From an uncultured Candidatus Saccharibacteria bacterium (lineage in GTDB: Bacteria; Patescibacteriota; Minisyncoccia; Minisyncoccales; JAGMDC01), in the NCBI GenBank assembly GCA_964615205.1, contig CAZTQA010000001.1, positions 510 through 64,509 of the forward strand: a stretch of 64,000 bases of DNA. The letters run 5' to 3'. Each line of letters starts with the position of its first letter. Within the stretch, counting starts at the first letter, position 1. Both the position numbers and the translations under genes were made by a program. Shown here in pieces: positions 3,663 through 49,087 of the stretch. The notes under the pieces are model-generated. The model had not been told where the DNA came from, searched no databases, and worked only from the letters and a program-made list of their open reading frames with translations.

Positions 3663-4277
3663 ATGGAGCTAAAAACTTTAAAGATAAAAAAAGGTAAAAT
3701 TGATTTCAAAAATAAATACTTAAAATTATCAATAATTATTGTTGTTTTATGTTCTTTAGTTTTGATCTGGGTTTTGAACAGTCAAGATTTTTTTATTCCA
3801 GAACAGCCTGAAAGCAAGAAATTTTTTGAAAATTGCCAGGCATTATCCTCTTCTTGTCTAAACAATGAATGTCCTTATTATTTTCTCTGCGATGTAATTG
3901 CTTTCACTGATTGTAAGGTTTATGATTGCGATGCTTATTATGGGGTTGTAATCAAAGACAATAATGGCGAAACAATTACTAGAGAACAGTCAAAACCGGA
4001 CGAGAAAAAAATTAAGGAAAAGCTCAATAAGTGCAGGGGAACCGTTGAGGTTTTGGAGAAAGAATTTAAAGATGGAAAATTGAATGTCAATGTTAAAGTG
4101 AACACTGTCGGCGATTGCAAAATAGTATCTTTTATAGCTCAAAGCCAAAATGGACTCAAAACCGCCTTTTTTGAAGAGAAGGATGATTATTATAATTTAA
4201 TTTTTAATTCTCCCCCTTCTGAACCATTTAAAACCATAGCTGTAGGTGAAGGAGGAATAAGCATAAGAGAGAAATGA
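3663..4277 (+). CDS. Membrane-anchored Cys-rich hypothetical protein
   Basis: N-terminal hydrophobic helix (LSIIIVVLCSLVLIWVL). Its stop overlaps the start of the giant gene (ATGA at 4274), so the two are probably co-translated. Confidence 0.5.
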   Translation: MELKTLKIKKGKIDFKNKYLKLSIIIVVLCSLVLIWVLNSQDFFIPEQPESKKFFENCQALSSSCLNNECPYYFLCDVIAFTDCKVYDCDAYYGVVIKDNNGETITREQSKPDEKKIKEKLNKCRGTVEVLEKEFKDGKLNVNVKVNTVGDCKIVSFIAQSQNGLKTAFFEEKDDYYNLIFNSPPSEPFKTIAVGEGGISIREK

Positions 4278-7200: not shown

Positions 7201-10200
7201 CAAAATTGAATATCAAGCTACAGCAACTGATTATAGTCTTAATTACAGCGAAACTACTAAAAAATCGTTTTTGGTTGAAGTAGATACTCATCCGCCAAAG
7301 GTGTTTTTGCTTTCTCCAGATGACAATATTGAAACTGAAGAACAAAGCATGCAGGTTTCTTTTAAGCAGATTGACGATGTTTCTTCTTCCTGTTCCTGCA
7401 GCTTATATTTAGACGATGAAGTTATCCAGACCAATTCATCGGTTCCCAATGATACTGTTACTTATTTTACTCTTAGTAATATGAAGCCAGGAACCAATTA
7501 TTGGACAGTTAAATGTACGGATGAAGCTGGAAATACGGGCAGTCCTTATTATATAAGCCTTGTAGCTAGCCATAATAATCTTTATCAAAGCGATGATGAT
7601 GGACAAACCTGGACAGGGTTGGATGTTTTGAAATATTTCAATTCTCCTATTACGGGAGAAGATTCCATAGGAGGTGTTTCTTTTCTAGATTCCACTTCAG
7701 ATGGAAAAATGTTTATGAGTTTAGGGTATGATAATCATTATGACTGTGACGGAACATATAAAAGCGTATGGCAGGTGCATCAAGCTACTTTTAGAAAAAA
7801 TAGTGACTCATCCATTTTAAAAATGATTAAGGGTGATTGTATAAATGGAAGTTCTAATTTGATCAGTTCTTTAGCTGAAGCTTCTAACGGAGATTTATAT
7901 GCGGTCAATGGTGGTATTTATAAAAGTACAGACAAGGGAGGTATTTGGGATCAAATATCTGGTCCATCTGGCTGTAAATCTGTAGCTGTGAGTGATAATG
8001 GATATATTTTTGCTACCGGCAGCAATGGCGTTTACAGAAGCATAGATAATGGTGAATCCTTTGAACTGCTTTCCGGAAGTCCTAAAATAACTATTACGCC
8101 CACAGCGCATCTTATTATTTCGGTTAATAATGATATTTACGTTGCCAGTGGGAAATATGTTTATAAAAGTATTAACAATGGAGATAACTGGACAATTGTT
8201 TTTACTTCTCCTTATGCAAGCCCTGGCAAAGAAGTTGCCTCTTTATTTGCTTTTAATCAAAACACTATTTTTGCTGGCATTAAACAAGACGATGAACTTT
8301 TAGGGGCAATTTATGTAAGCTATAATGCTGGAGTTGACTGGCAGATATCTTTACAACAACAGCAGATTTATAATGAAACAGATTCTATGGAAGGATGGAC
8401 GCAGTCTATTGATAAATCTCCACAAGGAGATATTTATGCAGCTATCTACGGTTATTGTTATTCTACTGAGCCAAAAGCATTAGTATATAGGAGTATGGAT
8501 TTGGGAGCAACTTGGCAATTATCTTTTTCAAGCCCAAAAAATACCAGTAATAATCCAAGCTTTTCAAGTGTAGTGGAGAATATTCGCCGTTCCATTATTA
8601 TTCCTAGTTGGCCTGAGGTCGGAAGAGAAAAAGATCATAATGCTTACACTTTTCTGGAAGGAGGAATAAGTTTTGTTGAAAAATACTGGAATCAATCCAT
8701 TAGTTCCCCTGTTGATTTAGATTGGGCTGGATTGGTAACGGCTGATATAGATGGCAATGGAAAAGATGAAATTTTTTCAATCAATGAAACAGCTCAAGCC
8801 TTTGATGGACAAGGAAACTTATTATGGAGCAGAACCTGCGGAGTAGGCTGGTCTTCTCCTCGTCCATGTTTTGAGCCAAGCGGATATGGGCAAATTTCAG
8901 CAGTGGGGGATGTTGATAATGACGGTGTTATGGAAATAGTTTTTAATGGCTATGACAATGAGATAATTTGCCGTAATGCAGCCACTGGTACTTTAAAATG
9001 GTTTACCTCTAGTCTCGATATCTATGAAGATGATGTAATAACACCGGTTATTGCTGATATTAATAACGATGGCTTAAATGAAATTATAATTCACGGAAAA
9101 AATCTTTATGTATTAGAAGGTTCCACAGGCGAAGTTTTATGGTCTAAAAGTATTTTGAACCGAGGCACAGTTCCTGCATTGGCTGATTTAAATCAGGACG
9201 GACAAATGGACATTGTGGTTGAAAATGCTAGTGATAATTATTTATATGCTTTTGATGGTCAGGAAAATCCATTATGGCAAGTTCAAGTTCAACCAAATTA
9301 CAATGATGTAACCGGCTATATTTCAATAGCTGATGTAGATAATGACAATAAGCCGGAAGTCATTGAAACTTGTTGGGGGGAAATTTTTGTCTTTAATGGA
9401 GAAGACGGTAGCAAACTATGGAGCAAACCATATGCTGAATTTCCTGGACAGCAAGCAGTTAACGATTATGGTTCCCCAGCTATAGGAGATGTAAGAACTG
9501 ATATTGCGGGAATGGAAATAGCCTTGGGATTAGCTGATCCTGGTGGTCATCCAGCCCAGGGATTATTCCTGTTAAATGGGAAGACAGGAGAGATTATTTG
9601 GAGTGATGCCTCTATTGGCAGTGTCTATGGCTCGCCAGCCATAGCTGATATTAACAGTGATGGAGAATTGGAAATTATTATTCAGACAGATATGGTTTAT
9701 TGTTTTAATTCCAGCGGAGAAATTATTTGGAGTTATCCGGCTGGCGGAAGGTCAAATGTAGCCATAGCAGATGTAATGGATACAGAAGGAGCTGAAGTGA
9801 TTGTTTTTTCTGGAGGAGAAATTTATGTTTTAGGAGAGGACAATGTCCCGCCCCAGCTTGTTATTGAAAGAGTGCCTGCGGGCGATGTTTACAATGATGA
9901 TACAGTAATTTTTACTTCTATAGCTTTAGATACATCAGGTATTTATTATCATGCTGTTCAATATCGTATAAACGAAGGAGAATGGGCAACTATTTTCGAA
10001 TGTTATGATTCAAACGGCGATAACAAATGCGACAGTGATTTCAGAGATGTTAATCCTTTAGTAGTATCAGTTGATCCCTATACTTATGCGGTTGATGATT
10101 ATATTGAATATCGTTCTACGGCTGTAGATAATAGTTTTCCTCCTAATACTGGCTATAGTGATATAGGTTCTTTTACTGTGCTTTTAGGTAATGCTCCGCC

Positions 10201-10921
10201 ATATATTCAATCCCAGGAAGTTAATTATCAAGAATACTGCGGATCAGGTCTTTGTGATGGAGCAGTAGGATTTAAGTGGATCTATAAAGATGAAGATGGG
10301 GACAATGAAATTAGATATGATTTCAAAATAAACGATGTTGATGATGTGGATGATCTCGATCCAGAAGTTGATAAGACTTTTAAGGGATTAAGTTATCCAG
10401 ATGGAACAGAAAATAATCAGCAAGTAACAGTAGCTAAGTCTGCAGGAGAGAACGAAATTACCTACAACACCACTTATTATTGGTGGGCAAAGGTATATGA
10501 TGAGTGGGGTGATTCCGGATGGATTAGCGGTAGTTCCTTTGCTACAGCTGCTCACGCTTATCCTGATCCTGATTTTACTTTGGAACCTGAAGCCCCGGCA
10601 GTAGATGTATTTGCTCAGTTATGCTCAGTGGAAGCACCGGGCCTTTGTGATTCAGATATTAGCAAATGCTATGACATTAATAATGAGGAAGTTTCTTGTT
10701 CCGGAGCCGAATTTACATGGGACATTAGTGGCTGCAATGGCATCTTTGTGGGAGGAACAGATGAGCATTCTGAAAATCCCAAAGTCAAACTTTATTCATC
10801 AGGTCAAATAAAGCTTTGGATTACAGACCAAGACGGTTTTGGCCCCTGTACTATTTCAAAAGATATTGAACCTAAACTTCCTTATCCCGGGTGGAAGGAA
10901 ATTCCTCCCCAGAAGGAATAA
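4274..10921 (+). CDS. Giant secreted surface protein (2215 aa) with duplicated Ig-like + BNR/Asp-box + FG-GAP/VCBS-like modules and a PKD/FN3-like C-terminus
   Basis: Signal peptide MKLSLFIFFFVLIGLIMPLQAFG. Many Asp-box-like SxDxGxxW motifs (SEDRGDSW, SIDKGATW, STDAGENW, SDDDGQTW, SMDLGATW). Many FG-GAP-like Ca-binding loops (DVNDDGKDEIV, DIDNDGLKELV, DINNDGQMEIV, DINADGSLDII, DVDNDGVMEIV). Confidence 0.85.
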   Translation: MKLSLFIFFFVLIGLIMPLQAFGVDPPKVTLISPNDNCEIEENVLDLTFKQTNSGGVACSCSLYLDDVVVQTNSSVPHNTPTTFSVSEIKPGQHWWTVKCTDASGNTGSPYYVAASSRDGGIYQSSTGNAGEWSKLDLSPYTYNSTTGYIEPQIYFMDADQRGQLFAHLDYENEYYQGEPQYYGGYYGDVDHRSLFRRPDEGSAWQILDLKKDEYSNWNIVSMAEDPASEDVYISVSGEGIYKSEDGGINFELLPNSPSSSILYLTVDPTTSDIYAGKFNYSGSSIYKSEDRGDSWNLLEGSPTVYSYTYTTGNGMDVAPNGDVYSTNNRGGVCKSIDKGATWSCKNYLIGGTDPSRTVKAISNDIIFVGGELDGYKIQRSTDAGENWETVFDLSSLGTRRYVNAIEMAPNGDIYIAIDYYSVSGYKTAIYRSTGNGDLGTWTKVLDLASGYVFSQVRVVDNVKRSFTVSSWSHIGRTETHSGFTPAIGNITAEKWSASVGGGFNFYNSPLTADVNDDGKDEIVLVRDRTFVFDGEGNKLFEGGCCFPSWHCASETCLSDNLRPSHPDIADIDNDGLKELVTKGGGVALLFSRELDLTGNLRWYYDNPSYLPVVSGSFTPVIFDLGIVGAKKEIIFATNGGLIVFEEENGLPYLGRNDGLMGVWQDGIGFKTDPYGSVPAVGDINNDGQMEIVVQGSPDIYAFDRWGNNLWQTSTGYDRTGYTILADVVSGNSGLEVITQYTDHVLCLDGDNGSILWDVNIGAGSPNLTAFPSPAVADIDNDGIIEVIAPKDAGGFYVLNGETGAIEQTIESGLIYGSIVIADINADGSLDIIAPTYEDLYVFDKDGNKLWSGLSLTGSAIPSLNSPAISDVDGDGWAEVILIDTSGVLHVLGKDNDPPIVTIEAKDKNNVLIPDGGIVKSEDTDLITISSIASDFSGIQNHKIKYWVNGILQEPIDEWSEGGTHFITIGPLLIGTKIEYQATATDYSLNYSETTKKSFLVEVDTHPPKVFLLSPDDNIETEEQSMQVSFKQIDDVSSSCSCSLYLDDEVIQTNSSVPNDTVTYFTLSNMKPGTNYWTVKCTDEAGNTGSPYYISLVASHNNLYQSDDDGQTWTGLDVLKYFNSPITGEDSIGGVSFLDSTSDGKMFMSLGYDNHYDCDGTYKSVWQVHQATFRKNSDSSILKMIKGDCINGSSNLISSLAEASNGDLYAVNGGIYKSTDKGGIWDQISGPSGCKSVAVSDNGYIFATGSNGVYRSIDNGESFELLSGSPKITITPTAHLIISVNNDIYVASGKYVYKSINNGDNWTIVFTSPYASPGKEVASLFAFNQNTIFAGIKQDDELLGAIYVSYNAGVDWQISLQQQQIYNETDSMEGWTQSIDKSPQGDIYAAIYGYCYSTEPKALVYRSMDLGATWQLSFSSPKNTSNNPSFSSVVENIRRSIIIPSWPEVGREKDHNAYTFLEGGISFVEKYWNQSISSPVDLDWAGLVTADIDGNGKDEIFSINETAQAFDGQGNLLWSRTCGVGWSSPRPCFEPSGYGQISAVGDVDNDGVMEIVFNGYDNEIICRNAATGTLKWFTSSLDIYEDDVITPVIADINNDGLNEIIIHGKNLYVLEGSTGEVLWSKSILNRGTVPALADLNQDGQMDIVVENASDNYLYAFDGQENPLWQVQVQPNYNDVTGYISIADVDNDNKPEVIETCWGEIFVFNGEDGSKLWSKPYAEFPGQQAVNDYGSPAIGDVRTDIAGMEIALGLADPGGHPAQGLFLLNGKTGEIIWSDASIGSVYGSPAIADINSDGELEIIIQTDMVYCFNSSGEIIWSYPAGGRSNVAIADVMDTEGAEVIVFSGGEIYVLGEDNVPPQLVIERVPAGDVYNDDTVIFTSIALDTSGIYYHAVQYRINEGEWATIFECYDSNGDNKCDSDFRDVNPLVVSVDPYTYAVDDYIEYRSTAVDNSFPPNTGYSDIGSFTVLLGNAPPYIQSQEVNYQEYCGSGLCDGAVGFKWIYKDEDGDNEIRYDFKINDVDDVDDLDPEVDKTFKGLSYPDGTENNQQVTVAKSAGENEITYNTTYYWWAKVYDEWGDSGWISGSSFATAAHAYPDPDFTLEPEAPAVDVFAQLCSVEAPGLCDSDISKCYDINNEEVSCSGAEFTWDISGCNGIFVGGTDEHSENPKVKLYSSGQIKLWITDQDGFGPCTISKDIEPKLPYPGWKEIPPQKE

Positions 10922-12990: not shown

Positions 12991-14313
12991 ATGATTACTA
13001 AAAAGCAAAAACAAGTTTTAGATTTCATAACTTTATATCGCAAGAAACGAGGATATTCTCCGTCTCTTGAAGAAATACAAAAAAAATTCAGACTTGCTTC
13101 TGTTTCTACTGCTCATTTCCATGTTAAAAAATTACAAGAATTGGGACTTTTAGAAAAAAAACACAACAAACCAAGGTCAATTAATATCTACGAGAACGAA
13201 AAAATGGTTAATATTCCTCTCCTGGGCTTAATAGCTGCTGGGCAGCCGATTGAAGCAATACAAGATAAAGAAACAATTGCTTTTCCCCAAAACAAACTTC
13301 CTCGCTTTGGAGAATTTTATGCTTTACGAGTAGCAGGAAATAGTATGATAGAGGAGAACATCAAGGATGGTGATATTATTTTAGTAAAAGAACAACAAAC
13401 AGTTGAAAATGGACAAAAAGTTGTTGCGCTGATCGATAATTATAAAGCAACCTTAAAAACGTTTTATAAAGAAAGAGATAAAATTCGTTTACAACCAGCC
13501 AATAAAAATTATGAACCAATTATTATAAAGAGCGGTGAACGAGAGATTGTTATTCAAGGACTTGTTATTGATGTAATAAAAAACAATGAAGAATTGCAAG
13601 CAACAGAATTATTATCGCAAAAGGAAATAAAGAGATATAATAACCTACCACTAAATAAAGTTATCTGTGGAGATGCTATAGAAGAATTGAAAAAACTACC
13701 AAATAAATCTATTGATTTGATATTAACAGATCCTCCTTACGGATTAAATAAAAAGGGCATTAGTAATGATACTGATTTAAGCTTATTTTATTCGTCTTTG
13801 CCGGAAAGTTACCGAGTTTTAAAGGATAACTCTTTCTTTATAACCTTTTTTAGTACAAAATTTTTACCACAAATTTTCAGAAGTAATCCTTTTGAATATT
13901 TCTGGAATTTTGTTCTTTATTGTCCGAATGGAAGCGTCTCTTCCCCTATAGGATATACAAAATATATGTCTTGTATGGTCTTCAAAAAGGGTAATCCTAA
14001 GATGATAAAAAGAGGGAAAGATATTTTTGTTGATACTCCAGGTAGAATGGTGGAACCTGACGAAGGGTTTATTAATCATCCAACGCCAAAACCAAAAACC
14101 TTTATAAAAGATATTTTGTTAATGTTCTCTAGAAACGGAGATATCGTTTTAGATCCTTTTATAGGTAGCGGGAGTACAGCAATTGCTTGTAAGCAAATTG
14201 GAAGAAATTTCATTGGATTTGAGATTGATGTAAATTACTATAAATTGGCTAAAGAAAGATTAAAGAAAATTGAAGGAAAATCTAAGACCTATGACCTTAA
14301 ACTTAATTTTTAA
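12991..14313 (+). CDS. Fusion protein: full-length LexA-like repressor (wHTH + S24 autopeptidase) fused to a beta-class N6A/N4C DNA methyltransferase
   Basis: aa 1-200 are colinear with LexA: cleavage site LIAA83|G84QP, Ser118 in AGNSM, Lys156 in ATLKTF, end GLVIDVIKN. aa 225-440 are a methyltransferase: DPPY at aa 247-250, HPTPKP, LDPFIGSGST, FIGFEID. The motif order IV then I defines the beta class. Confidence 0.85.
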   Translation: MITKKQKQVLDFITLYRKKRGYSPSLEEIQKKFRLASVSTAHFHVKKLQELGLLEKKHNKPRSINIYENEKMVNIPLLGLIAAGQPIEAIQDKETIAFPQNKLPRFGEFYALRVAGNSMIEENIKDGDIILVKEQQTVENGQKVVALIDNYKATLKTFYKERDKIRLQPANKNYEPIIIKSGEREIVIQGLVIDVIKNNEELQATELLSQKEIKRYNNLPLNKVICGDAIEELKKLPNKSIDLILTDPPYGLNKKGISNDTDLSLFYSSLPESYRVLKDNSFFITFFSTKFLPQIFRSNPFEYFWNFVLYCPNGSVSSPIGYTKYMSCMVFKKGNPKMIKRGKDIFVDTPGRMVEPDEGFINHPTPKPKTFIKDILLMFSRNGDIVLDPFIGSGSTAIACKQIGRNFIGFEIDVNYYKLAKERLKKIEGKSKTYDLKLNF

Positions 14314-15190
14314 TAAGGTTCTTTAGAACTGTTTTCATATCCCAAGCATGCTCTTTTGAGGCAACGATAAAGCTTTCTGCAAGTCCTATCAGATCATCTT
14401 TACTAATTGGTAAAAAGATTACTTCATTACTTTTTGCTGTTCGTCCAATAATTGAACGGTTGTCTTTGTCAAAAAGATTGTTTGCTTTTGAACAGAAATA
14501 TATCATACTTTGATAACCAACTGCTTTTTGTTTGTGTTGTAAAATAATTTCAACAAGAGTATTGCTACTTATTCTATTCATAAATAAAGGATTTTTTTCT
14601 TCAAATAATTCAAACTTGCCCAAAATTTTTTTATGAGTCGTTGTTCTGATAATTTTATACTGTTTTTCAATATCTAATTCATTTTTATTATTAAAATCTA
14701 TCAATTGTTCAATTTCCTGTTTGTTTATTAATTTATCTTTTAATGCGATTTTGAACAAATCAGATAATTCATAACCGACATAAGTATTTCCATTTTTGTG
14801 CTCTTTTATAACTATTATTTCATTATTTCTTTTAAAAATTTCAAGTATTTCATTCTTAAAATCTTTTCTACTTTTGATGTTCGTTTCTAGAATAAATTTT
14901 TTAATATCGCTAAGGATGTTTATATTTTTATAATTTAAAGATAAATTTTCTAAAATGTTCTCGCGATCTTTTGGCGTTTTAGCTGTTCGATAGTTTTTCC
15001 AGATTGTATCAATCGGCAAGAAATAAGAAATTTGCCATTCAACATAATCATTTTCAGAAAATACATTTTTCTTTACAGAAATTGGTTCGCCAAAATTATC
15101 TTTCCTTCGTTTAACTCTAATTTTGCTAGTTGCACCAGTTATTGGGATAGAACAAATAATTTTACTATTTTTTATAAAAAGCATTGACAT
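14303..15190 (-). CDS. Hypothetical protein; candidate cognate restriction endonuclease
   Basis: 295-aa ORF convergent with the methyltransferase, 3' ends overlapping by 11 nt. Visibly very AT-rich. I could find no nuclease motif, so the call rests on context only. Confidence 0.35.
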   Translation of the reverse strand: MSMLFIKNSKIICSIPITGATSKIRVKRRKDNFGEPISVKKNVFSENDYVEWQISYFLPIDTIWKNYRTAKTPKDRENILENLSLNYKNINILSDIKKFILETNIKSRKDFKNEILEIFKRNNEIIVIKEHKNGNTYVGYELSDLFKIALKDKLINKQEIEQLIDFNNKNELDIEKQYKIIRTTTHKKILGKFELFEEKNPLFMNRISSNTLVEIILQHKQKAVGYQSMIYFCSKANNLFDKDNRSIIGRTAKSNEVIFLPISKDDLIGLAESFIVASKEHAWDMKTVLKNLIKN

Positions 15191-33058: not shown

Positions 33059-33286
33059 ATGATAAAGATAGATGAAGATATAACCTGGATGATGTCTTTG
33101 ATAGCTTCTTTCTTCCTAGTATTAGTAATAGCAAACCCTGTTTATTTTTGTGCCGAGCGAATCCCTGGGACAGTCTTAGGTGGTTTCATGGCAACTATAA
33201 CATTAAATCGTTTTCTTTCTAGTAATAAACAGGGTGCTTTTAAAGATATTCAACATCAAGGGGTAGCGCCCTCTTTTTTTTATTGA
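33059..33286 (+). CDS. Small hydrophobic hypothetical protein
   Basis: 75-aa ORF with a TM helix (LIASFFLVLVIANPVYF), preceded by TTGACA near 33006 and AGAGGTG as a possible SD. No family recognised. Confidence 0.3.
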   Translation: MIKIDEDITWMMSLIASFFLVLVIANPVYFCAERIPGTVLGGFMATITLNRFLSSNKQGAFKDIQHQGVAPSFFY

Positions 33287-34776: not shown

Positions 34777-35061
34777 ATGAATAAAATGGTCAGACTCCAC
34801 TTATTTGTTAGTGGCAGGGTTCAGGGTGTTTTTTTTAGGCAAAGCACCAAGGAAAAAGCCCGGAAATTAAACCTTAATGGCTGGGTAAAAAATTTAAAAG
34901 ATGGAAAAGTAGAAATTGTTTCCGAAGGAGAGAAAGAAAAAAATAAAAAATTACTTGATTGGGTTAGAAAGAGCGGTCCTCTTCTGGCCCGGGTAGATAA
35001 TGTAGAAATAAAAGAAGAGGATTCTAAGAACGAGTTTAAATCTTTTGATATTCTTTATTAA
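34777..35061 (+). CDS. acyP: Acylphosphatase
   Basis: VSGRVQGVFFRQSTKEKARKLNLNGWVKNLKDGKVEIVSEG matches the acylphosphatase signature VxGxVQGVxFR...GWVxN. Confidence 0.85.
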   Translation: MNKMVRLHLFVSGRVQGVFFRQSTKEKARKLNLNGWVKNLKDGKVEIVSEGEKEKNKKLLDWVRKSGPLLARVDNVEIKEEDSKNEFKSFDILY

Positions 35062-35062
35062 T

Positions 35063-35338
35063 ATGTCAGTTTTTCAAATCATTTTCATATACGGGTTAAT
35101 TTTTTTAGGTTCCTTCTTATTTGCTTTAAGATATAAAGACCGTTTAGCCAAGCATGACGGAAATTTTCCTGAAACCCTAGTTAAAAGCTTTGTTATTTTT
35201 GTTTATATAGGAGGTATTTTTAGTATTTCATTTCTTTCACCTTTTTTAATATCTCAAGCAGGTGAGATTCAAACCATCGCTCAATCAATAGATTATTCTG
35301 CCTTGATTGCTTCAATAGCAGGTAATCTGGGTATTTAA
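35063..35338 (+). CDS. Small membrane protein (hypothetical)
   Basis: ORF track gives 35045..35338. The likelier start is MSVFQIIFIYG. Two to three hydrophobic helices. Confidence 0.4.
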   Translation: MSVFQIIFIYGLIFLGSFLFALRYKDRLAKHDGNFPETLVKSFVIFVYIGGIFSISFLSPFLISQAGEIQTIAQSIDYSALIASIAGNLGI

Positions 35339-40695: not shown

Positions 40696-41355
40696 ATGGA
40701 AAGCAAGTTATTGACTGGACTAGGTATTTTGTGTTTTCTGGCAGGGATAGTTTTGGTATCAGCAAACATAGACACAGGGGAAAATGCAGTCGTAGTTGAT
40801 AGCAATACAGTTACAGCAGCCAGATTGACCTTGACAGAGATAGCACCTTTAAACATCAATATAACGCCGGGTACTAACAATACCTGGACAGTGAACGTCA
40901 CGAACACTGGAACGATGAAAGGTAATGTTACGATAGAGACAATTAAATTCCTTGGCTTAGAGAACGGCGTGCTGGATATAGAAAATAAGACAATGGGAGA
41001 CGAAGAAGGAAAGGATCTCGGCTGCGACCAGATTGAAGGGGACGGAGAATTGGACAACTTGGTAGAAGTTTTACTCAAGAACGGCGATACTATTGTTCTG
41101 CATTTGAAGGACGGAGAACTTTTCACCAACTCTTCTAATTGTACGCTGACGCCCGGAGAAACAAGGCAGTTGAATCTAACAGTGCTGTGGTCACCTTCCA
41201 AACCACCGCGGATAAGTGATCTGACTGCCCAAACAGACAGTTTTGAATTCGCTTTAGAAATAGAAATTGGGCAGATAGGAATTGCCAGAGGATTCTCTGA
41301 CTCAAAAATAGTGCCAGTAGAGATAATAGCTGAAACCTGGGAGGAAGAGACATGA
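40696..41355 (+). CDS. Secreted/anchored beta-rich protein, TasA/camelysin-like (tentative), rich in N-x-S/T sequons
   Basis: SD AGGAGGG. N-terminal hydrophobic segment LLTGLGILCFLAGIVLV. NTVTAARLTL...ITPGTNNTWTVNVTNTGTMKGNVTIE resembles TasA-family motifs. 8 N-x-S/T sequons. Confidence 0.45.
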   Translation: MESKLLTGLGILCFLAGIVLVSANIDTGENAVVVDSNTVTAARLTLTEIAPLNINITPGTNNTWTVNVTNTGTMKGNVTIETIKFLGLENGVLDIENKTMGDEEGKDLGCDQIEGDGELDNLVEVLLKNGDTIVLHLKDGELFTNSSNCTLTPGETRQLNLTVLWSPSKPPRISDLTAQTDSFEFALEIEIGQIGIARGFSDSKIVPVEIIAETWEEET

Positions 41356-42092
41356 ATCTGACTAGACGAGCCTTATTCGTTGTCCTGATGATTATACTCG
41401 TATGGGTTTTTGTGGGTTCGCTAATGTGGTATGTTTCTAAATCCATAGAGCGACCTGAACCCTCACCAATGCCGACGCCGTATCAAACACTCTATCCGAC
41501 TTTTAGACCACCAGTTCCAACTTTCGTCCCAACTCCAAATCCGAGCCCTACTTCGACTCCAAGTTCAATTCCAACGCCTACCCCAATAGTTAGACGCAGC
41601 GGAGGAGGTGGAGGAGGAGGCGGTGGTGGCGGAACACCGTCAACGCCAACACCATCACCAACACCAGCGCCAATAGCGATAGGATTATGGTTGTGTGGGG
41701 CAGATGGCAGTAATTGCACCCAGAGAACAGAAGGTCTTATAAAGGCAGTCAATATAGCGCCGGGAGACAGCGGAGAAATTACTAGGACACTGAAAAACAA
41801 TGGCAATGCTACTGCAGTATACTTCGAGGTGTTTAATTTAACTTCAGAAGGCTCAGGACGGCTAGAGAATCATTTTTATCTGGAGATTGATTTTGATAAT
41901 CGGACAACCGTAGCTAATATTTCAGCATTCCAGAACAATTCAACCGAAATTGGAGAAATCCAGAATAACCAAACACTGCCTATAACCATGACTTGGGAGT
42001 TCAACGCAACGCAAATTGTCAGCCAAGAAGAGATAAATAAACTGCAAGGCACCGGCATAAACTTCGCATTCAGATACTTACCAAAACAATAA
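41352..42092 (+). CDS. Membrane-anchored protein with Pro/Thr linker, Gly11 run and TasA-like C-terminal domain, rich in N-x-S/T sequons
   Basis: TM helix ALFVVLMIILVWVFVGSLMWYV, PT-rich linker, RRSGGGGGGGGGGGTPSTPTPSPTP, then VNIAPGDSGEITRTLKNNGNATAVYFEV. Confidence 0.45.
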   Translation: MNLTRRALFVVLMIILVWVFVGSLMWYVSKSIERPEPSPMPTPYQTLYPTFRPPVPTFVPTPNPSPTSTPSSIPTPTPIVRRSGGGGGGGGGGGTPSTPTPSPTPAPIAIGLWLCGADGSNCTQRTEGLIKAVNIAPGDSGEITRTLKNNGNATAVYFEVFNLTSEGSGRLENHFYLEIDFDNRTTVANISAFQNNSTEIGEIQNNQTLPITMTWEFNATQIVSQEEINKLQGTGINFAFRYLPKQ

Positions 42093-42102
42093 TAAAAATT
42101 AA

Positions 42103-43983: not shown

Positions 43984-44280
43984 TTGGAACTAGATAAGCT
44001 ATCAAAGTTAGAAGATGGGACAGAGTTAAGAAATGTAAGAGTCGTTCTGCGAAGGAAAGTGGGAGAGGAAACTGTCGGGACAAACCATATAAGAGATATC
44101 TTTGGTAGAGAAAGCTTTTTATATCTGCCAAGAGCTATATGGCGAGCGAATAACGGGAACAGGCGACTTGAGGACGAGAAAGGAAATAATATGCTCCTCT
44201 TGTCGGATCCTGACTGTAAGATAACAAATCTTGAGTTTTCAGCAACAATCCAAATATTCTCCCAAACCAAGACAACGTAA
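43984..44280 (+). CDS. Hypothetical 98-aa protein with atypical codon usage (alternative: structured RNA)
   Basis: GGAGG SD (43973-43977), 6 nt, then TTG start. The ORF fills the promoter-to-terminator interval. Third codon positions are visibly G/C-rich, unlike neighbouring genes. Confidence 0.4.
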   Translation: MELDKLSKLEDGTELRNVRVVLRRKVGEETVGTNHIRDIFGRESFLYLPRAIWRANNGNRRLEDEKGNNMLLLSDPDCKITNLEFSATIQIFSQTKTT

Positions 44281-44283
44281 AGA

Positions 44284-44321
44284 ATCAAAAAGGCCAGATT
44301 TTCATCTGACCTTCCCTTTTT
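44284..44321. terminator. Bidirectional hairpin terminator (rplT on the minus strand, 43984 unit on the plus strand)
   Basis: GGCCAGAT-TTTC-ATCTGACC, flanked by an A-run on the left and a T-run on the right. The minus-strand RNA pairs fully (one G-U); the plus-strand RNA has one C-A mismatch. Confidence 0.7.
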
Positions 44322-44667
44322 ATTCCTTGGATTTCTCCACTATTTTTTTGAAAACTTCAGGTTTGGTTTGGGCTAATTGAGCTAATATTTTTCTATCCAG
44401 CTCAATCTTGTTTTTCTTCAAACCAGCTATAAATCTGCTATAAGTTATGCCTTGTTCTCGACAAGCAGCATTGATTTTGATTTGCCAGAGCTGTCTAAAG
44501 TTTCTTTTCTTTGTTCTGCGGTCTCGATAAGCATAAGACCAAGCATGAGCTAAGGCATCTTTAGCTGCTTTGTATTTTGTTTTTCTTCCCCACCTAAAAC
44601 CTTTGGCGTGTTTCAAAATATTTTTTCTGCGTTTATGAGCAGTTGTCCCTCTTTTTACCCTAACCAT
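44320..44667 (-). CDS. rplT: 50S ribosomal protein L20
   Basis: MVRVKRGTTAHKRRKNILKHAKGFRG-like N-terminus, 115 aa, in the infC-rpmI-rplT order. Confidence 0.95.
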   Translation of the reverse strand: MVRVKRGTTAHKRRKNILKHAKGFRWGRKTKYKAAKDALAHAWSYAYRDRRTKKRNFRQLWQIKINAACREQGITYSRFIAGLKKNKIELDRKILAQLAQTKPEVFKKIVEKSKE

Positions 44668-44837
44668 TTTTTTATCTTTTTAGTTTCCCATTTAGAAAGA
44701 TTAACCCATTTTCTGGATTCTCTTTTCTGTTTGCCGGATTTTTTTGCTCTTTGGTGATCCTGGCCGCAGGGCCGACGCAAAATCTTTCCGGTTTTGGTAA
44801 TTTTGAATCTTTTAGTTAAAGCTTTTCTTGTTTTCAT
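44655..44837 (-). CDS. rpmI: 50S ribosomal protein L35
   Basis: MKTRKALTKRFKITKTGKILRR, 60 aa. Confidence 0.9.
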   Translation of the reverse strand: MKTRKALTKRFKITKTGKILRRPCGQDHQRAKKSGKQKRESRKWVNLSKWETKKIKKWLG

Positions 44838-44838
44838 A

Positions 44839-45351
44839 TTATTTTTTTGAGATAATCATTGTCAATCCTCGGGCTTCTTTTTTTAAACCTCTTTCTACCT
44901 TAAATTCTACAAGTGCACTCAGCATTTCTTTGAATTTATTTGTTTTCTCTCTGGCAAAATCCTGTAGGGCTTTCTCTCTTCCTCTTAGGCGCATCTCAAT
45001 TCTTACTTTATTGCCTTCTTTCAAAAATTTTTCAGCTTGCTTAACCCGTGTTTCCATATCATGAGGAGAAATGTTAAAGCTTAGCTTTATGCCTTTCATT
45101 TCTCCGCCCTTTTGTTTCTTGGCGGATTTTCTTTCCTGTTTTTTTTCTAGATACTGGTATTTCCCATAATCCATTATTTTACAAACCGGAACATCCAATT
45201 TTTCCGTTACCTGAATTAAATCTAAATTGCGCTCCCGAGCTATGTGGAGCGCTTCCTCCAAATTTAAAACACCCAAGTTTTTGCCGCTTTCATCAATTAC
45301 TCTAACTTGTTTAGCCCTTATTCCATTGTTGACAAATGTTCTTTTAAACAA
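44839..45351 (-). CDS. infC: Translation initiation factor IF-3 (TTG start; the ORF-track N-terminus is spurious)
   Basis: VNNGIRAKQVRVIDESGKNLGVL...VCKIMDYGKYQY are IF3 motifs. ORF-track residues 1-21 are encoded by the tmRNA 3' end. The in-frame TTG at 45351 gives 170 aa, the normal IF3 size. Confidence 0.85.
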   Translation of the reverse strand: MFKRTFVNNGIRAKQVRVIDESGKNLGVLNLEEALHIARERNLDLIQVTEKLDVPVCKIMDYGKYQYLEKKQERKSAKKQKGGEMKGIKLSFNISPHDMETRVKQAEKFLKEGNKVRIEMRLRGREKALQDFAREKTNKFKEMLSALVEFKVERGLKKEARGLTMIISKK

Positions 45352-45358
45352 TTTTCTG

Positions 45359-45705
45359 TGGAGATGAGGAGAATTGAACTCCTGTCCAGAAACTTCCCTA
45401 AGATATTTCGACAAGCTTAAAAAGTTTTGCCTCTTTTTCTTAACAGCTATTCGAGGCGGGATAGCTGTCTATCTCGATAATATGACACCTTCCTTATTTA
45501 TCGAGAGTCAATAAAGAAGATGGCATTACGATTAAACGTAAGCAGGAACTAATCCAGCTACGCCGCCGCCAAAGGCATTGGCAAAAGCTGCTTTAGTTTT
45601 AGAAATTAAGTTGGCGCTTATTTCTTTTTCCCAAAGTTTAACGAGGTTTGAGAAAACTCGGCTTGCATACCTTAGTTCAGATTCCTGTCTATGCCTTTCA
45701 TCCCC
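45359..45705 (-). ncRNA. ssrA: tmRNA (SsrA)
   Basis: 5' GGGGATG pairs with 3' CATCTCC, including the G3-U70 Ala identity pair, followed by discriminator A. T-arm GGAC-AGGAG-TTCAATT-CTCCT matches E. coli GGAC-GCGGG-TTCAACT-CCCGC. Internal tag frame ends ...GGGVAGLVPAYV-TAA. Located directly downstream of smpB. Confidence 0.88.
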
Positions 45706-46141
45706 GTAAAATTCTTTGTTTTTCTCTTTCAAATTCGCGTTTCTTTATTTTTTCCCTTTTATCAATTTCTCTTTTTCCTTTGCCTAATCCAAATAAAAGC
45801 TTTACTTTCGTATTCTTAGTATACACCTTTAAAGGCATCAAAGTCAAGCCCTTTTGTTTGATTTTCCCAATCAATGATTTAATTTCTGATTTAGTTAGAA
45901 GCAGTTTGCGAGAGCGTTCAGGATTATAATCTTTGGGAGCGTTTTTAGGCTGGTAGGGAGGAATATTGGCGCCGATTAAGAATAATTCTTCATTTTTAAA
46001 AACTACATAAGCTCCTTTTAGGCTAATATGGCCGGTTTTAATAGATTTTACTTCTTGACCATTCAAAACCATACCTGCTTCGTAGGTATCTAAAATTTCA
46101 TAATCATAGTAAGCCTTTTTATTTTCAGCCAACACTTTCAT
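45698..46141 (-). CDS. smpB: SsrA-binding protein SmpB
   Basis: NKKAYYDYEILDTYEAGMVLNGQEVKS...LLLTKSEI... is typical SmpB. The stop TGA lies inside the tmRNA 5' end GGGGATGA. Confidence 0.95.
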   Translation of the reverse strand: MKVLAENKKAYYDYEILDTYEAGMVLNGQEVKSIKTGHISLKGAYVVFKNEELFLIGANIPPYQPKNAPKDYNPERSRKLLLTKSEIKSLIGKIKQKGLTLMPLKVYTKNTKVKLLFGLGKGKREIDKREKIKKREFEREKQRILRG

Positions 46142-46299
46142 TAATTTAGTTTAGCAACTTTGAAATTATTTGACAAACTTTTTGATTGGTTTATGATTAT
46201 TATGATCTTTTAAAATTGAAAATGATTAATGAAAAAGGGGAAATAAAAGAAAAAGCTTAGAGGTCTTTATAACAAAAGGATAACAAGTTTCTGTGAATG

Positions 46300-46451
46300 T
46301 GTTATACTCTTTCAAATAAAGGAGGGAATTATCTCTGAATGCAGAAATCCACCCCTGATAGATGATCCAGTGATAAAAGTGGAGAACGTGGAATTATCAT
46401 TTCAAACAGAATTAACGAAATAAATAGGCGAACCAGTTCGCCTTCTTTTTT
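46300..46451 (+). other. Stand-alone short transcription unit A (candidate sRNA or micropeptide)
   Basis: TGtTATACT extended -10 (46300-46308), AAGGAGGG, no good AUG ORF (only MQKSTPDR*), then a strong terminator AGGCGAA-CCAG-TTCGCCT followed by TCTTTTTT (46426-46451). Confidence 0.3.
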
Positions 46452-46462
46452 GCGCGTTACTA

Positions 46463-46491
46463 TTGACAAATAATAAAAAAAGTTATATTAT
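46463..46491 (+). promoter_or_regulatory. Sigma70-like promoter of cassette B
   Basis: TTGACA (46463-46468), 17-nt spacer, TATTAT. Contains the shared AAGTTATA block. Confidence 0.5.
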
Positions 46492-46510
46492 ATTATTGGA
46501 GGTGAGAGAC

Positions 46511-46702
46511 ATGAAAAGATATATACTTTTGGCTGTTCTGCTTGGTTTGGGTTCTTTGATAGCAAGTATTGCGTGGAACAACGTTTATCTAACGAGCTCA
46601 GGTTTTCTATTCCTCTGTTTGCCCATACCGATGTATATGGCAAAGAGAAAAAGTATGCCAGATTGCTTAAGAAGATATTGTCCAAGCGGAAATAATTTTT
46701 AA
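46511..46702 (+). CDS. Small two-helix membrane protein (63 aa), cassette B
   Basis: SD GGAGGTGAG, start MKRYILLAVLLGLGSLIASIAW (ORF track starts upstream at 46463). Followed by GCGG...CCGC hairpin plus T-run. Confidence 0.5.
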   Translation: MKRYILLAVLLGLGSLIASIAWNNVYLTSSGFLFLCLPIPMYMAKRKSMPDCLRRYCPSGNNF

Positions 46703-46739
46703 AGCGGTAGACTAATGCCGCCTTATTTTTTTAAATTTG

Positions 46740-46768
46740 TTGACATGTAAACAAGAGAAAGTTATACT
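46740..46768 (+). promoter_or_regulatory. Sigma70-like promoter of cassette C
   Basis: TTGACA (46740-46745), 17-nt spacer, TATACT (46763-46768). Confidence 0.55.
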
Positions 46769-46787
46769 CTTTAAGAGGAGGAAAAAG

Positions 46788-46967
46788 ATGAAAAAGTACC
46801 CGATCGATATGCTGATAATTATAGTAGCAGCGATTGCTTGTTATATACTAGTGATAATCGGACTAGAGACAAATATTTATCTCTGTCCAATCGGTCTAGG
46901 GATATTGGCTTTCGGTGTTTTTATAGCTGCTTTGTTTGATGTGATAACCCAGCCCTCGAGTTATTAA
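46788..46967 (+). CDS. Small two-helix membrane protein (59 aa), cassette C
   Basis: SD GAGGAGG, start MKKYPIDMLIIIVAAIACYILVIIG (ORF track starts at 46737). Terminator AAGCGG-TTTTTGTG-CCGCTT plus T-run at 46966-46991. Confidence 0.5.
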   Translation: MKKYPIDMLIIIVAAIACYILVIIGLETNIYLCPIGLGILAFGVFIAALFDVITQPSSY

Positions 46968-47022
46968 GCGGTTTTTGTGCCGCTTTTTTTATTGCTGAAC
47001 CAGGTTTAACTATTTAAATAGT

Positions 47023-47050
47023 TGACTTTTTTATTTTAAAAGTTATCCTG
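47023..47050 (+). promoter_or_regulatory. Sigma70-like promoter of cassette D
   Basis: TTGACT, 16-nt spacer, TATCCT, with the shared AAGTTAT block. Confidence 0.45.
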
Positions 47051-47067
47051 AAATTAGGAGATTAAAG

Positions 47068-47433
47068 ATGAATAAAGAATTAGCGCTTTCGCTGAGGGTT
47101 ATGTCTAGTTTATTGCTTTGGCCAGGGGCTCTCTGGATAATGATTTCTGTGGGATTACTGCTATTTCTGTGTTACGATTTCAGCGGAACAATGCTTGAAG
47201 ACATGTATCTTTCCTACGGAATGAATCTGCACCTATTTATAGTAGCAATAGCAATGGTGATTATTGCAACTATAGGAGATTTTTACAGTCATATCAAGAC
47301 ATATCTAATGTACCGTAGAGATAGTGAAGCTGCTTATTTAACGGGAAATGCACGTTTGTGCTTGAGAAGTAACGGTAGAATATGCTATAAGGTTGGAAGG
47401 AGAGCCAAGTCAAGCAAAATGGTACTAAAGTAA
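47068..47433 (+). CDS. Membrane protein (121 aa) with basic C-terminal tail, cassette D
   Basis: SD AGGAG. Three hydrophobic segments, then an RRDSEAAYLTGNARLCLRSNGRICYKVGRRAKSSK tail. Hairpin GGTACTAA...TTAGTACC plus T-run overlaps the stop (about 47421-47457). Confidence 0.5.
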   Translation: MNKELALSLRVMSSLLLWPGALWIMISVGLLLFLCYDFSGTMLEDMYLSYGMNLHLFIVAIAMVIIATIGDFYSHIKTYLMYRRDSEAAYLTGNARLCLRSNGRICYKVGRRAKSSKMVLK

Positions 47434-47497
47434 AAATAAACTTAGTACCTTTTTTTTAGCTATTTATTTTTAAGGGAAAATAAGTTAAAGTTTAATA

Positions 47498-49087
47498 ATG
47501 GATACCATTAGAGGAGAAATAAGAAGAGTAGTTCAGGAAGCAGTAAAAAAAGAATGGCCCAAAATAAGATTGGATGAAGTTTTAGTTGAAGTTCCGGAAA
47601 ATAATAAATATGGGGACTATTCAAGCAATATTGCTATGCAATTGGCAAGACAAGTCAAAGAAGAGCCACTAAAAATAGCAGAAATTTTACAGAAAGAAAT
47701 GCTAAATACTAAATATAAGATACAAGATACATTCGAGAAAATTGAATTATCAGAGCCGGGATTTATAAACTTTTTTGTATCCAAAGAATATTTACAAAAT
47801 CAGGTTAAAGAGATTTTAAGACAAAAAGAGAAATTCGGGCACTTAAAGATTGGCAAGAATAAAAAAATAAATATAGAATTTATTTCTGCCAATCCCACTG
47901 GTCCTTTAACCATCGGCAATGCTCGAGGCGGAGTTTTTGGAGATGTCTTAGGAAATGTTTTTAGGGTAGCTGGTTATAAAGCGGAGAAAGAATACTATAT
48001 TAATGATTTCGGGAATCAGATTATAGCATTAGGTCATTCTGTTCTAAAAGACAAGGAAACTGTTTATAAAGGAGACTATATTAATAAACTTCATAAAAAA
48101 GTAAAAGAAAAAGATGTTTTTAAGGCTGGACAGAAAACAGCCAAAATAATTTTAGAGGAAATGATAAAAAAGACAGTTAAGAGAATGGGTATTCAGTATG
48201 ATAATTGGTTTTGGGAAAGCCAGCTACATAAGAAAAAAGAAGTAGATAAAACAATAGATTTATTGAAAAAGAAAAACTTAGTTTATGAAAAAGATGATGC
48301 TTTCTGGTTTAAATCAAGAAAGTTCCAGGATAACAGAGACAGAGTTTTAATAAAAAAAGACGGGTCTAAGACTTATTTAGCCGGAGATATCGCTTATCAT
48401 AGAGACAAAATTGAAAAGAGAAGATTTGATAAAGTTATAAATGTTTGGGGTGCAGATCATGCTGGTGATGTAGCTGGTTTGAAGGCAGGAGTAGAAGCTT
48501 TGGGATATAAAAATAAAGTTGAGATAGTTTTGCATCAATTTATAACTATTCTGAAAAAAGGAGAAAGACAAAGAATGTCAAAAAGAAAAGGAATCTATTT
48601 TACTATGGATGAATTAATTGAAGAAGTGGGTAAGAATGTTATAAGATTCTTTTTTCTTCAGAAAACGATTAACACTCATTTGAACTTTGATCTGGATTTA
48701 GCCAAGGAAGAGTCAGAAAAGAACCCGGTTTATTATGTTCAATATGCCTATGCTCGAATTTGTTCAATAATTCGCAAATCCGAGAAATCCCAAATCCCAA
48801 ATCCCAAATTTAATTTATTAGAACATCCGAGCGAATTAAAGTTAATTAAACAATTAGTTAGATTTCCGGAAGTAGTTGCAGACGTTTCTAAGGATTATCA
48901 GGTTCAGAAATTGCCGCAATATGCTTTGGATTTAGCCGCAATTTTCCATCAGTTTTATCAAGACTGTCGAGTAATCTCTGATAATAAAAACCTTAGTCAA
49001 TCGCGTCTGGCCCTTATCACGGCCACGAAAATTATTTTTAAAAACAGTTTTGATTTGATGGGTATTTCTGCTCTCCGAAAGATGTAA
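47498..49087 (+). CDS. argS: Arginyl-tRNA synthetase
   Basis: SANPTGPLTIGNARG (HIGH-region equivalent), GADH, MSKRKG, anticodon-binding C-terminal domain. Confidence 0.9.
   Translation: MDTIRGEIRRVVQEAVKKEWPKIRLDEVLVEVPENNKYGDYSSNIAMQLARQVKEEPLKIAEILQKEMLNTKYKIQDTFEKIELSEPGFINFFVSKEYLQNQVKEILRQKEKFGHLKIGKNKKINIEFISANPTGPLTIGNARGGVFGDVLGNVFRVAGYKAEKEYYINDFGNQIIALGHSVLKDKETVYKGDYINKLHKKVKEKDVFKAGQKTAKIILEEMIKKTVKRMGIQYDNWFWESQLHKKKEVDKTIDLLKKKNLVYEKDDAFWFKSRKFQDNRDRVLIKKDGSKTYLAGDIAYHRDKIEKRRFDKVINVWGADHAGDVAGLKAGVEALGYKNKVEIVLHQFITILKKGERQRMSKRKGIYFTMDELIEEVGKNVIRFFFLQKTINTHLNFDLDLAKEESEKNPVYYVQYAYARICSIIRKSEKSQIPNPKFNLLEHPSELKLIKQLVRFPEVVADVSKDYQVQKLPQYALDLAAIFHQFYQDCRVISDNKNLSQSRLALITATKIIFKNSFDLMGISALRKM

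Follow-up and report, generated by a model that had tools for sequence, protein, structure and literature searches.

In the 64-kb stretch of DNA analyzed here (hereafter the window), which originates from a bacterium of the Candidate Phyla Radiation (CPR)/Patescibacteria with a low guanine plus cytosine (GC) content, the genes smpB and argS are separated by a gap of 1356 bp that contains four co-oriented units, named A to D, each equipped with a sigma70-like promoter, a strong Shine-Dalgarno (SD) sequence and a terminator. We consider it probable, with a likelihood of roughly 60%, that the block from about 46180 to 47460 represents a lineage-specific and probably horizontally acquired islet of four autonomous small-membrane-protein cassettes, which resemble the morons of phages in their organization. 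An earlier sequence-only reading of this DNA had already ascribed an own promoter, SD and terminator to each unit, and all of the elements it listed could be located in the sequence, in an arrangement that is clearly non-random. Its description of the units as individually insulated and strongly signalled small open reading frames (ORFs), unlike the adjoining housekeeping operons, holds as well.

The block was recognized as an insertion by comparison with 12 related loci, in all of which smpB and argS are divergent neighbors, as they are in the window. At 11 of these loci the spacer between the two genes is 32-372 bp long (124 bp in L007, about 32 bp in L009, 66 bp in L093, 56 bp in L101, about 145 bp in L090-L092, and 372 bp in L010) compared to the 1356 bp observed here, and the gap of the closest relative, L087, is occupied by an unrelated ORF of 226 amino acids (aa). 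Cassettes A to D were not found at any of the 12 loci, which, together with the short spacers, implies that the block is a lineage-specific insertion. This agrees with the previous remark that such cassettes are unexpected at this position. On the smpB side, the original spacer sequence is kept from 46142 to about 46170, and the block reaches further to the left than the formerly given start (46290), namely to about 46170-46180. On the argS side, a motif shared with two of the relatives is kept (Table 1). It conforms to the consensus TTTTTAAG(G/T)GAAA(A)TAAG(C/T)TAAA(A/G)T, found directly upstream of argS in three genomes, the ArgS proteins of which are about 46-47% identical. This motif is probably the native, conserved argS promoter, which would give rise to a near-leaderless argS mRNA, and probably marks the right edge of the insert. 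Since the flanking spacer sequences are kept on both sides, the block appears to have been inserted between two intact divergent promoters. The spacers of L010 and L087 also contain ORFs. The one in L010 (2668-3039) encodes 75 aa, which are hydrophobic in an N-terminal segment and end in a basic tail, and is unrelated to B, C, and D, whereas the 226-aa ORF in L087 (2454-3134) is again specific to its lineage. In view of these different lineage-specific ORFs, the smpB-argS spacer seems to be a permissive, recurrent landing site. Relatives with an ArgS or SmpB of at least 90% identity were not present in the collection.

The expression signals of the four units (Table 1) are rare within the window. 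Promoter-like sites that agree with the consensus at 11 or more of 12 positions occur only seven times in the 64 kb on both strands, and three of these lie within this 600-bp stretch. Similarly, six perfect-stem terminator-like sites were counted under a strict definition on the + strand of the whole window, three of them located here. The four terminator hairpins of the cassettes have folding energies of -9 to -10.8 kcal/mol. In the units, about 7 nt separate the -10 element from the SD and 6-8 nt the SD from the ATG, so that the leader starts with the SD and comprises no more than about 12-14 nt, and the terminators abut or overlap the stop codon. In addition to the four cassette promoters, a fifth promoter-like site was detected at the left edge of the block. 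It is arranged back-to-back with the smpB promoter, whose -35 element on the opposite strand it overlaps, and it is absent from the sequence-only reading.

That reading had proposed a promoter block AAGTTATAYT common to the units and, based on the shared promoter and terminator parts, a duplication of whole cassettes. The promoter block is exact at B and C, which are the only two exact occurrences in the window, while D contains it with one mismatch. Cassettes A and C have the exact 12-mer GTTATACTCTTT in common. The regulatory parts of B and C and those of C and D are closer to each other than shuffled sequence (p = 0.003-0.009; p = 0.07 for B and D), a likeness for which the common -35, -10, and SD motifs could suffice. 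The encoded proteins do not show any similarity above that of shuffles in BLASTP and in a shuffle test (p = 0.2 for B-C, 0.6 for B-D, and 0.15 for C-D), and, given this lack of mutual similarity, the duplication of entire cassettes is not supported. The motifs MK(R/K)Y and N(V/I)YL pointed out for B and C are literally there, but the two proteins carrying them are no more alike than shuffles (p = 0.2). Paralogs of B, C, or D were not found elsewhere in the window.

Table 1. Positions of the cassettes, their expression signals and the flanking features in the window.
Feature	Position	Strand	Details	Basis
Cassette A	46280-46452	+	promoter, SD, terminator; without convincing ORF	
Cassette A promoter	46300-46308 (-10)	+	TG-extended -10 TATACT, -35 ATAACA, 9/12 matches	consensus scan
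Cassette A SD	46320-46326	+	AGGAGGG	read from sequence
Cassette A terminator	46426-46443 (stem)	+	stem and T-run, bidirectional	scan, folding
Cassette B	46463-46734	+	ORF 46511-46702, 63 aa	
Cassette B promoter	46463-46491	+	TTGACA-17-TATTAT, 11/12	consensus scan
Cassette B SD	46498-46502	+	GGAGG	read from sequence
Cassette B terminator	46704-46721 (stem)	+	stem and T-run	scan, folding
Cassette C	46740-46992	+	ORF 46788-46967, 59 aa	
Cassette C promoter	46740-46768	+	TTGACA-17-TATACT, 11/12	consensus scan
Cassette C SD	46776-46781	+	AGGAGG	read from sequence
Cassette C terminator	46966-46985 (stem)	+	stem and T-run	scan, folding
Cassette D	47022-47457	+	ORF 47068-47433, 121 aa	
Cassette D promoter	47022-47049	+	TTGACT-16-TATCCT, 9/12	consensus scan
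Cassette D SD	47056-47060	+	AGGAG	read from sequence
Cassette D terminator	47421-47449 (stem)	+	stem and T8	scan, folding
Fifth promoter-like site	46170-46197	+	TTGACA-16-TATGAT, 11/12	promoter scan; spacer comparison for boundary
argS-proximal spacer motif	47464-47497	+	TTTTTAAGGGAAAATAAGTTAAAG (47466-47489)	same motif upstream of argS in L095, L101
argS, right flank	47498-49087	+		ORF list; Pfam Arg_tRNA_synt_N, tRNA-synt_1d, DALR_1 on identical contig
smpB promoter-like site	46176-46148	-	TTGTCA-17-TAAACT	promoter scan
smpB, left flank	45698-46141	-		ORF list; Pfam SmpB on identical contig
Transfer-messenger RNA (tmRNA) gene	45356-45705	-		Rfam RF00023, 131 bits; ARAGORN

The block also looks foreign with regard to its translation signals and codon use. 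The 5-mers GGAGG or AGGAG precede just 4 of 42 host genes, two of which are part of a separate high-GC island, compared to all three cassette ORFs (and, in addition, unit A; Fisher p = 0.0025 for 3/3 versus 4/42). A TATAAT-like hexamer is located within a few bases of the ATG in several host genes (e.g., among those at 14303-15190, 15466, 42183, 49120, and 52455), and this, combined with the near absence of SD sequences, suggests that leaderless or SD-independent initiation is widespread in the host. The synonymous-codon scores of B (0.095), C (-0.238), and D (-0.019) belong to the lowest 0-8% of host-gene windows (host genes, 0.256 ± 0.107) and are like those of random stop-free sequence (0.04 ± 0.12). 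The high-GC island mentioned above (40700-42100; GC 0.44-0.505 compared to about 0.32 elsewhere) is probably another piece of foreign DNA. Both of its ORFs (40696-41355 and 41352-42092) have a strong SD, and neither has a Pfam or PHROG match.

Among the cassette ORFs, D is a real gene and belongs to a very rare, apparently mobile CPR protein family of two members. A phmmer/HMMER search of 1.84 billion representative sequences revealed a single true homolog, P0004 (117 aa; E = 3e-11), and otherwise only two repeat-protein artefacts. By BLASTP, the two proteins are 36% identical over 101 residues (E = 2e-21), and their alignment score of 164 compares to 27 ± 5 for shuffled sequences. The aligned proteins share the motif Y[DN]FSGT[ML]LE in the loop between two predicted transmembrane helices as well as [DE]FY.[HY]IK[TS]Y and D.EA[AS]YL.G past the second, juxtamembrane, and a basic tail, which was formerly noted for D, ends both proteins. 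We infer from these features that D may be an inner-membrane protein of small size, in which the two transmembrane helices form a hairpin of N-in/C-in orientation and the basic tail is cytoplasmic. An AlphaFold model built from the two-sequence alignment placed helices at residues 3-16, 19-41, and 51-91 with low confidence (pLDDT, the predicted local distance difference test score, of 57.7) and was too poor for a fold search. A sequence search of the PDB gave no match, and in a word-indexed database of 5.8 billion proteins D matched only itself. D produced a weak match to SieB (PF14163; E = 0.004, 17.2 bits), but as this score is below the Pfam cut-off of 26 and P0004 does not have any SieB match, D was not accepted as a member of that family.

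The cassette format is shared by the homolog. P0004 is preceded by TTGACA-17-TATTCT, AGGAGG, and the ATG and followed, 3′ of its stop codon, by a GGGGCG...CGCCC hairpin with a T-run, so that the layout common to both genes is TTGAC, 16-17 nt, TAT[CT]CT, AGGAG, ATG, and a terminator past the stop. The two upstream regions are closer to each other than shuffles (p = 0.0005), to which the functional motifs they have in common contribute. Outside the coding region of D, no DNA similarity was detected between the insert and L167, the locus of P0004. The only other gene common to both loci encodes a geranylgeranyl-reductase-like enzyme, and since this enzyme is only 30% identical, D is conserved no less well than an enzyme across the two distant genomes. 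P0004 adjoins a divergent gene of 427-436 aa with matches to the IS481 family (E = 2.4e-8) and to rve (E = 1.6e-4), both of which are below the curated cut-offs. Together with near-identical inverted hairpins (6583-6608 and 6655-6680), the two genes are contained in a 2.2-kb segment (L167, 4388-6781) between 96-nt direct repeats, which are 97% identical and copy the 3′ end of a gene for a major facilitator superfamily (MFS) transporter. This segment is probably an integrative or mobile element. The contig of P0004 also carries rpsP, a KH-domain (KhpA/B-type) gene, trmD, and a 16S rRNA gene of bacterial type, which is broken up by large insertions and spans about 3.2 kb in total (L173, 3302-6505), a typical CPR feature. 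This gene content assigns P0004 to another CPR bacterium and overrules an archaeal origin, which had been considered because of archaeal-type matches to geranylgeranyl reductase and NMN adenylyltransferase (NMNAT).

B and C could plausibly be genes, although this is unproven, and they are weaker candidates than D. The start of B was corrected relative to the sequence-only reading (Table 1), and its protein possesses a hydrophobic N-terminal half with one clear helix and a short second segment, followed by a basic, Cys-containing tail. The C protein contains two hydrophobic helices with a grand average of hydropathy (GRAVY) of 1.53, a hydrophobicity far above chance (p = 0.0003), and looks like a two-helix hairpin. 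Positive residues are present at the N-termini of B, C, and D, and the C-terminal tail is basic in B and D. In all three cassettes the ATG is positioned 6-8 nt past the SD and the frame is open exactly up to the terminator, with a probability of being stop-free of 0.017 for B, 0.022 for C, and 0.0004 for D. Searches of Pfam, PHROGs, PADLOC, and NCBIfam did not yield anything above the cut-offs for B, C, or D. The sequence-only reading had made its view of the ORFs depend on homologs and on conservation among close relatives. One true homolog exists for D and none for B and C, and close relatives are not in the databases. For unit A, the lack of a convincing ORF is borne out, as it offers nothing but an ATG ORF of 8 codons (46339-46365) or a frame of 30 codons (46331-46423), for which ATC would have to serve as the start codon. 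An Rfam match was not obtained for A (44000-49000 at E <= 5 and the whole window at gathering thresholds), and folding z-scores of 0.14 and -0.72 do not indicate a stable structure apart from the terminator. We propose that A is a degenerate or micro-ORF unit.

Several observations weigh against an acquired islet of functional cassettes. B and C have no homolog in the word-indexed database of 5.8 billion proteins, in which they match only themselves, they are called by just one annotation pipeline, their codon use cannot be told apart from that of random stop-free sequence, and the hydrophobicity of B is within chance for such a T-rich composition. Relatives of B, C, and D were not found among phages, plasmids, or IMG/VR. 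With a GC content of 0.33-0.37, the block is only slightly different from its neighbors (0.29-0.34). Neither an integrase or transposase nor a flanking repeat or phage gene adjoins the block within the window. As the metagenome copies are all 99.9-100% identical, they provide neither dN/dS values nor a population signal of selection. We can only infer that the cassettes are transcribed and translated, and a protective or accessory role of their products is pure conjecture.

Some of these points would also be expected if D were the only gene and A, B, and C were non-coding remains, i.e., decayed cassettes or short RNAs with ORFs that are accidents of T-rich sequence. Such an origin, which we regard as unlikely, would account for the absence of homologs of B and C, for their lack of a host-like or otherwise distinctive codon bias, and for the fact that A has no proper ORF in spite of its promoter, SD, and terminator, and random stop-free ORFs with 60 codons and such a composition contain a hydrophobic helix in about 30% of cases. 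It is at odds with the position of the ATG of B and C behind a strong SD and with frames that are uninterrupted right up to the terminator (joint probability of about 4e-4), and also with the hydrophobicity of C, which is far beyond what chance would produce. Moreover, SD motifs are rare in the host genome, and four SDs in a row are therefore unlikely to be accidental. The sequence-only reading had compared the cassettes, among others, to type I toxins or holin-like peptides. In that case, each cassette would code for a membrane-damaging peptide that is restrained by an RNA antitoxin or by timing. The small size and hydrophobicity of B, C, and D, the charged C-termini of B and D, and the strong individual promoters and terminators would fit this idea, as would one antisense promoter-like site (47297 to 47269, 10/12) inside D, and cassette A could be a small RNA. 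However, the 15 promoter-like sites in the scanned stretch do not exceed the 12 ± 4 found in shuffles, and none is antisense inside B or C. The possibility of a trans-acting antitoxin RNA from cassette A was discarded since its pairing with the mRNAs of B, C, and D shows no excess complementarity (duplex z = -0.7 to +0.9), and A is devoid of a stable fold. Furthermore, leaders of 12-14 nt are too short for the structured 5′ untranslated regions that restrain the translation of type I toxins, C and D are unlike typical type I toxins in having two predicted helices (and, for D, 121 aa), endolysin or lysis genes are not present nearby, and no match to a holin, toxin, or defense family was obtained in the four family databases. 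With neither an antisense or complementary RNA found computationally nor a lysis partner or a family match, the toxin idea does not stand up well and is distinctly improbable.

A secreted peptide paired with an immunity protein was considered, too. Here, B would be a signal-peptide-bearing, cationic, Cys-containing, bacteriocin-like peptide and C its membrane immunity protein. By eye, the start of B (MKR and a hydrophobic core ending in SIA) resembles a Sec signal peptide, the remaining 42 residues would be cationic and include three Cys, and the two-helix protein C is encoded immediately downstream. We nevertheless judge such a pair to be very improbable, given that bacteriocin or immunity families were not matched in Pfam, PHROGs, PADLOC, or NCBIfam, that B and C have separate promoters and terminators instead of forming one operon, that transporter or processing genes are missing, and that the status of B as a gene is itself uncertain. 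The orientation of all units toward argS and their location directly upstream of it could, in principle, be explained by a regulatory leader consisting of serial attenuators or of a promoter stack driving argS. The chance of this is close to negligible, because four full terminators in series would stop read-through, the conserved native motif is intact beside argS, and the relatives manage with spacers of 32-372 bp. In line with this, no T-box or other Rfam leader was found, with tmRNA as the only hit between 44000 and 49000 at E <= 5, and tmRNA and tRNAs as the only ones in the whole window at gathering thresholds.

If the block is, as favored here, an acquired islet of moron-like cassettes, each unit would be transcribed and terminated alone, independent of the flanking operons. 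The terminator at the stop codon would shield each gene from its neighbors as well as from smpB and argS, and the native promoters on the two flanks would remain intact. The products would be small membrane proteins, with two helices in C and D and one clear helix in B, which may be expressed constitutively and tolerated. Such expression appears most likely since the leaders are too short to accommodate translational control and an antisense partner was not detected. An accessory membrane role in exclusion, immunity, or envelope modification is most likely a better fit than a role as toxins. One may go further and speculate, with little expectation of being right, that the D cassette and P0004 stand for a class of small-membrane-protein cassettes that is specific to CPR, mobile, self-expressing, and moron-like, and to which B and C would belong as still-unique members. 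These cassettes would move between Patescibacteria genomes, whether or not a DDE transposase accompanies them, settle in permissive spacers between divergent promoters, bring SD signals to largely SD-less hosts, and act at the envelope, for example in phage exclusion or by modulating the interface between episymbiont and host.

CPR/Patescibacteria have tiny genomes, in which small membrane proteins without annotation abound, and little is known about the way in which these bacteria acquire accessory genes. The locus described here is a clean, datable example of such a gain, with a divergent promoter pair split by four autonomous cassettes whose strong SDs contrast with an almost SD-free host. 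Provided that the cassettes are expressed, they would supply natural promoter, SD, and terminator parts for CPR biology, and D could readily be studied as a candidate protein acting at the envelope or in exclusion. Without expression, the locus would be no more than an ORFan islet.

The genes around the block are arranged in the order rplT-rpmI-infC, tmRNA, smpB, the gap, argS, ileS, and recO (Table 1). The best matches of ArgS are to metagenome-assembled genomes of Patescibacteria and Nealsonbacteria (48-52% identity) and to one metagenome contig (62%). The tmRNA gene and the 3′ end of smpB overlap by 8 nt, and the encoded tag, ANLISKTKAAFANAFGGGVAGLVPAYV, is unusually long with 27 residues. 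The listed start of infC (TTG, 45414) overlaps the 3′ end of the tmRNA gene, and the real start is probably more internal. Elsewhere in the window, a giant ORF of 2215 aa is found at 4274-10921. Two small hydrophobic intergenic ORFs, at 33059-33286 (75 aa, with SD) and 35045-35338 (97 aa), have no Pfam match and do not exhibit the promoter-terminator cassette format.

The block can be compared with several known systems. Integron gene cassettes are promoterless ORFs associated with attC and intI, whereas each unit described here has its own promoter, no repeated attC-like element was found among the repeats, and the flanks do not contain an integrase ORF. Type I toxin-antitoxin loci, such as hok/sok, tisB/istR, ibs/sib, and fst, have in common with the cassettes their intergenic location, the small hydrophobic ORFs, and the strong, separate promoters and terminators. 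They differ in that no antisense or complementary RNA was detected computationally for the cassettes, that the leaders of the latter are very short, that C and D have two helices (D with 121 aa) in comparison to the single helix of a toxin of less than about 60 aa, and that the cassette ORFs are not repeated paralogs. Class II holins and SieB are similar with regard to two transmembrane helices, the presumed N-in/C-in orientation, and a charged C-terminal tail. The holin shape fits B and D, but endolysin and lysis genes or a prophage context are not present nearby, and the apparently constitutive signals of the cassettes do not resemble the ones that lysis genes have. Passenger genes of insertion sequences (IS) and transposons come to mind because P0004 adjoins an IS481-like DDE transposase gene inside the segment bounded by 96-nt repeats. 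This differs from the block in the window, which is not flanked by a transposase, inverted repeats, or a convincing target duplication, and even at the P0004 locus the transposase matches are below the curated cut-offs.

The closest resemblance is to phage morons, which are recognized by an own promoter and terminator, a different composition, and by being additional when related genomes are compared (Juhala et al., 2000, reviewed in PMC3594210). The block likewise separates, as additional DNA, two genes that are direct neighbors in the relatives, and each cassette has, at the sequence level, its own promoter and terminator. As to composition, the codon and SD use of the cassettes are clearly atypical, and their GC content is only slightly different. 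The first moron to be described, gene 15 of HK97, encodes gp15, a small inner-membrane protein mediating superinfection exclusion (PMC3594210), and D is predicted to be a small inner-membrane protein as well. Unlike morons, the block comprises four units in tandem in a CPR host, its proteins have no sequence relation to gp15/YebO or any PHROG family, and it is flanked by rplT-rpmI-infC-tmRNA-smpB and argS-ileS-recO instead of phage or prophage genes. Because of this position outside a prophage, the block is not a moron by definition, but it most likely works like one.

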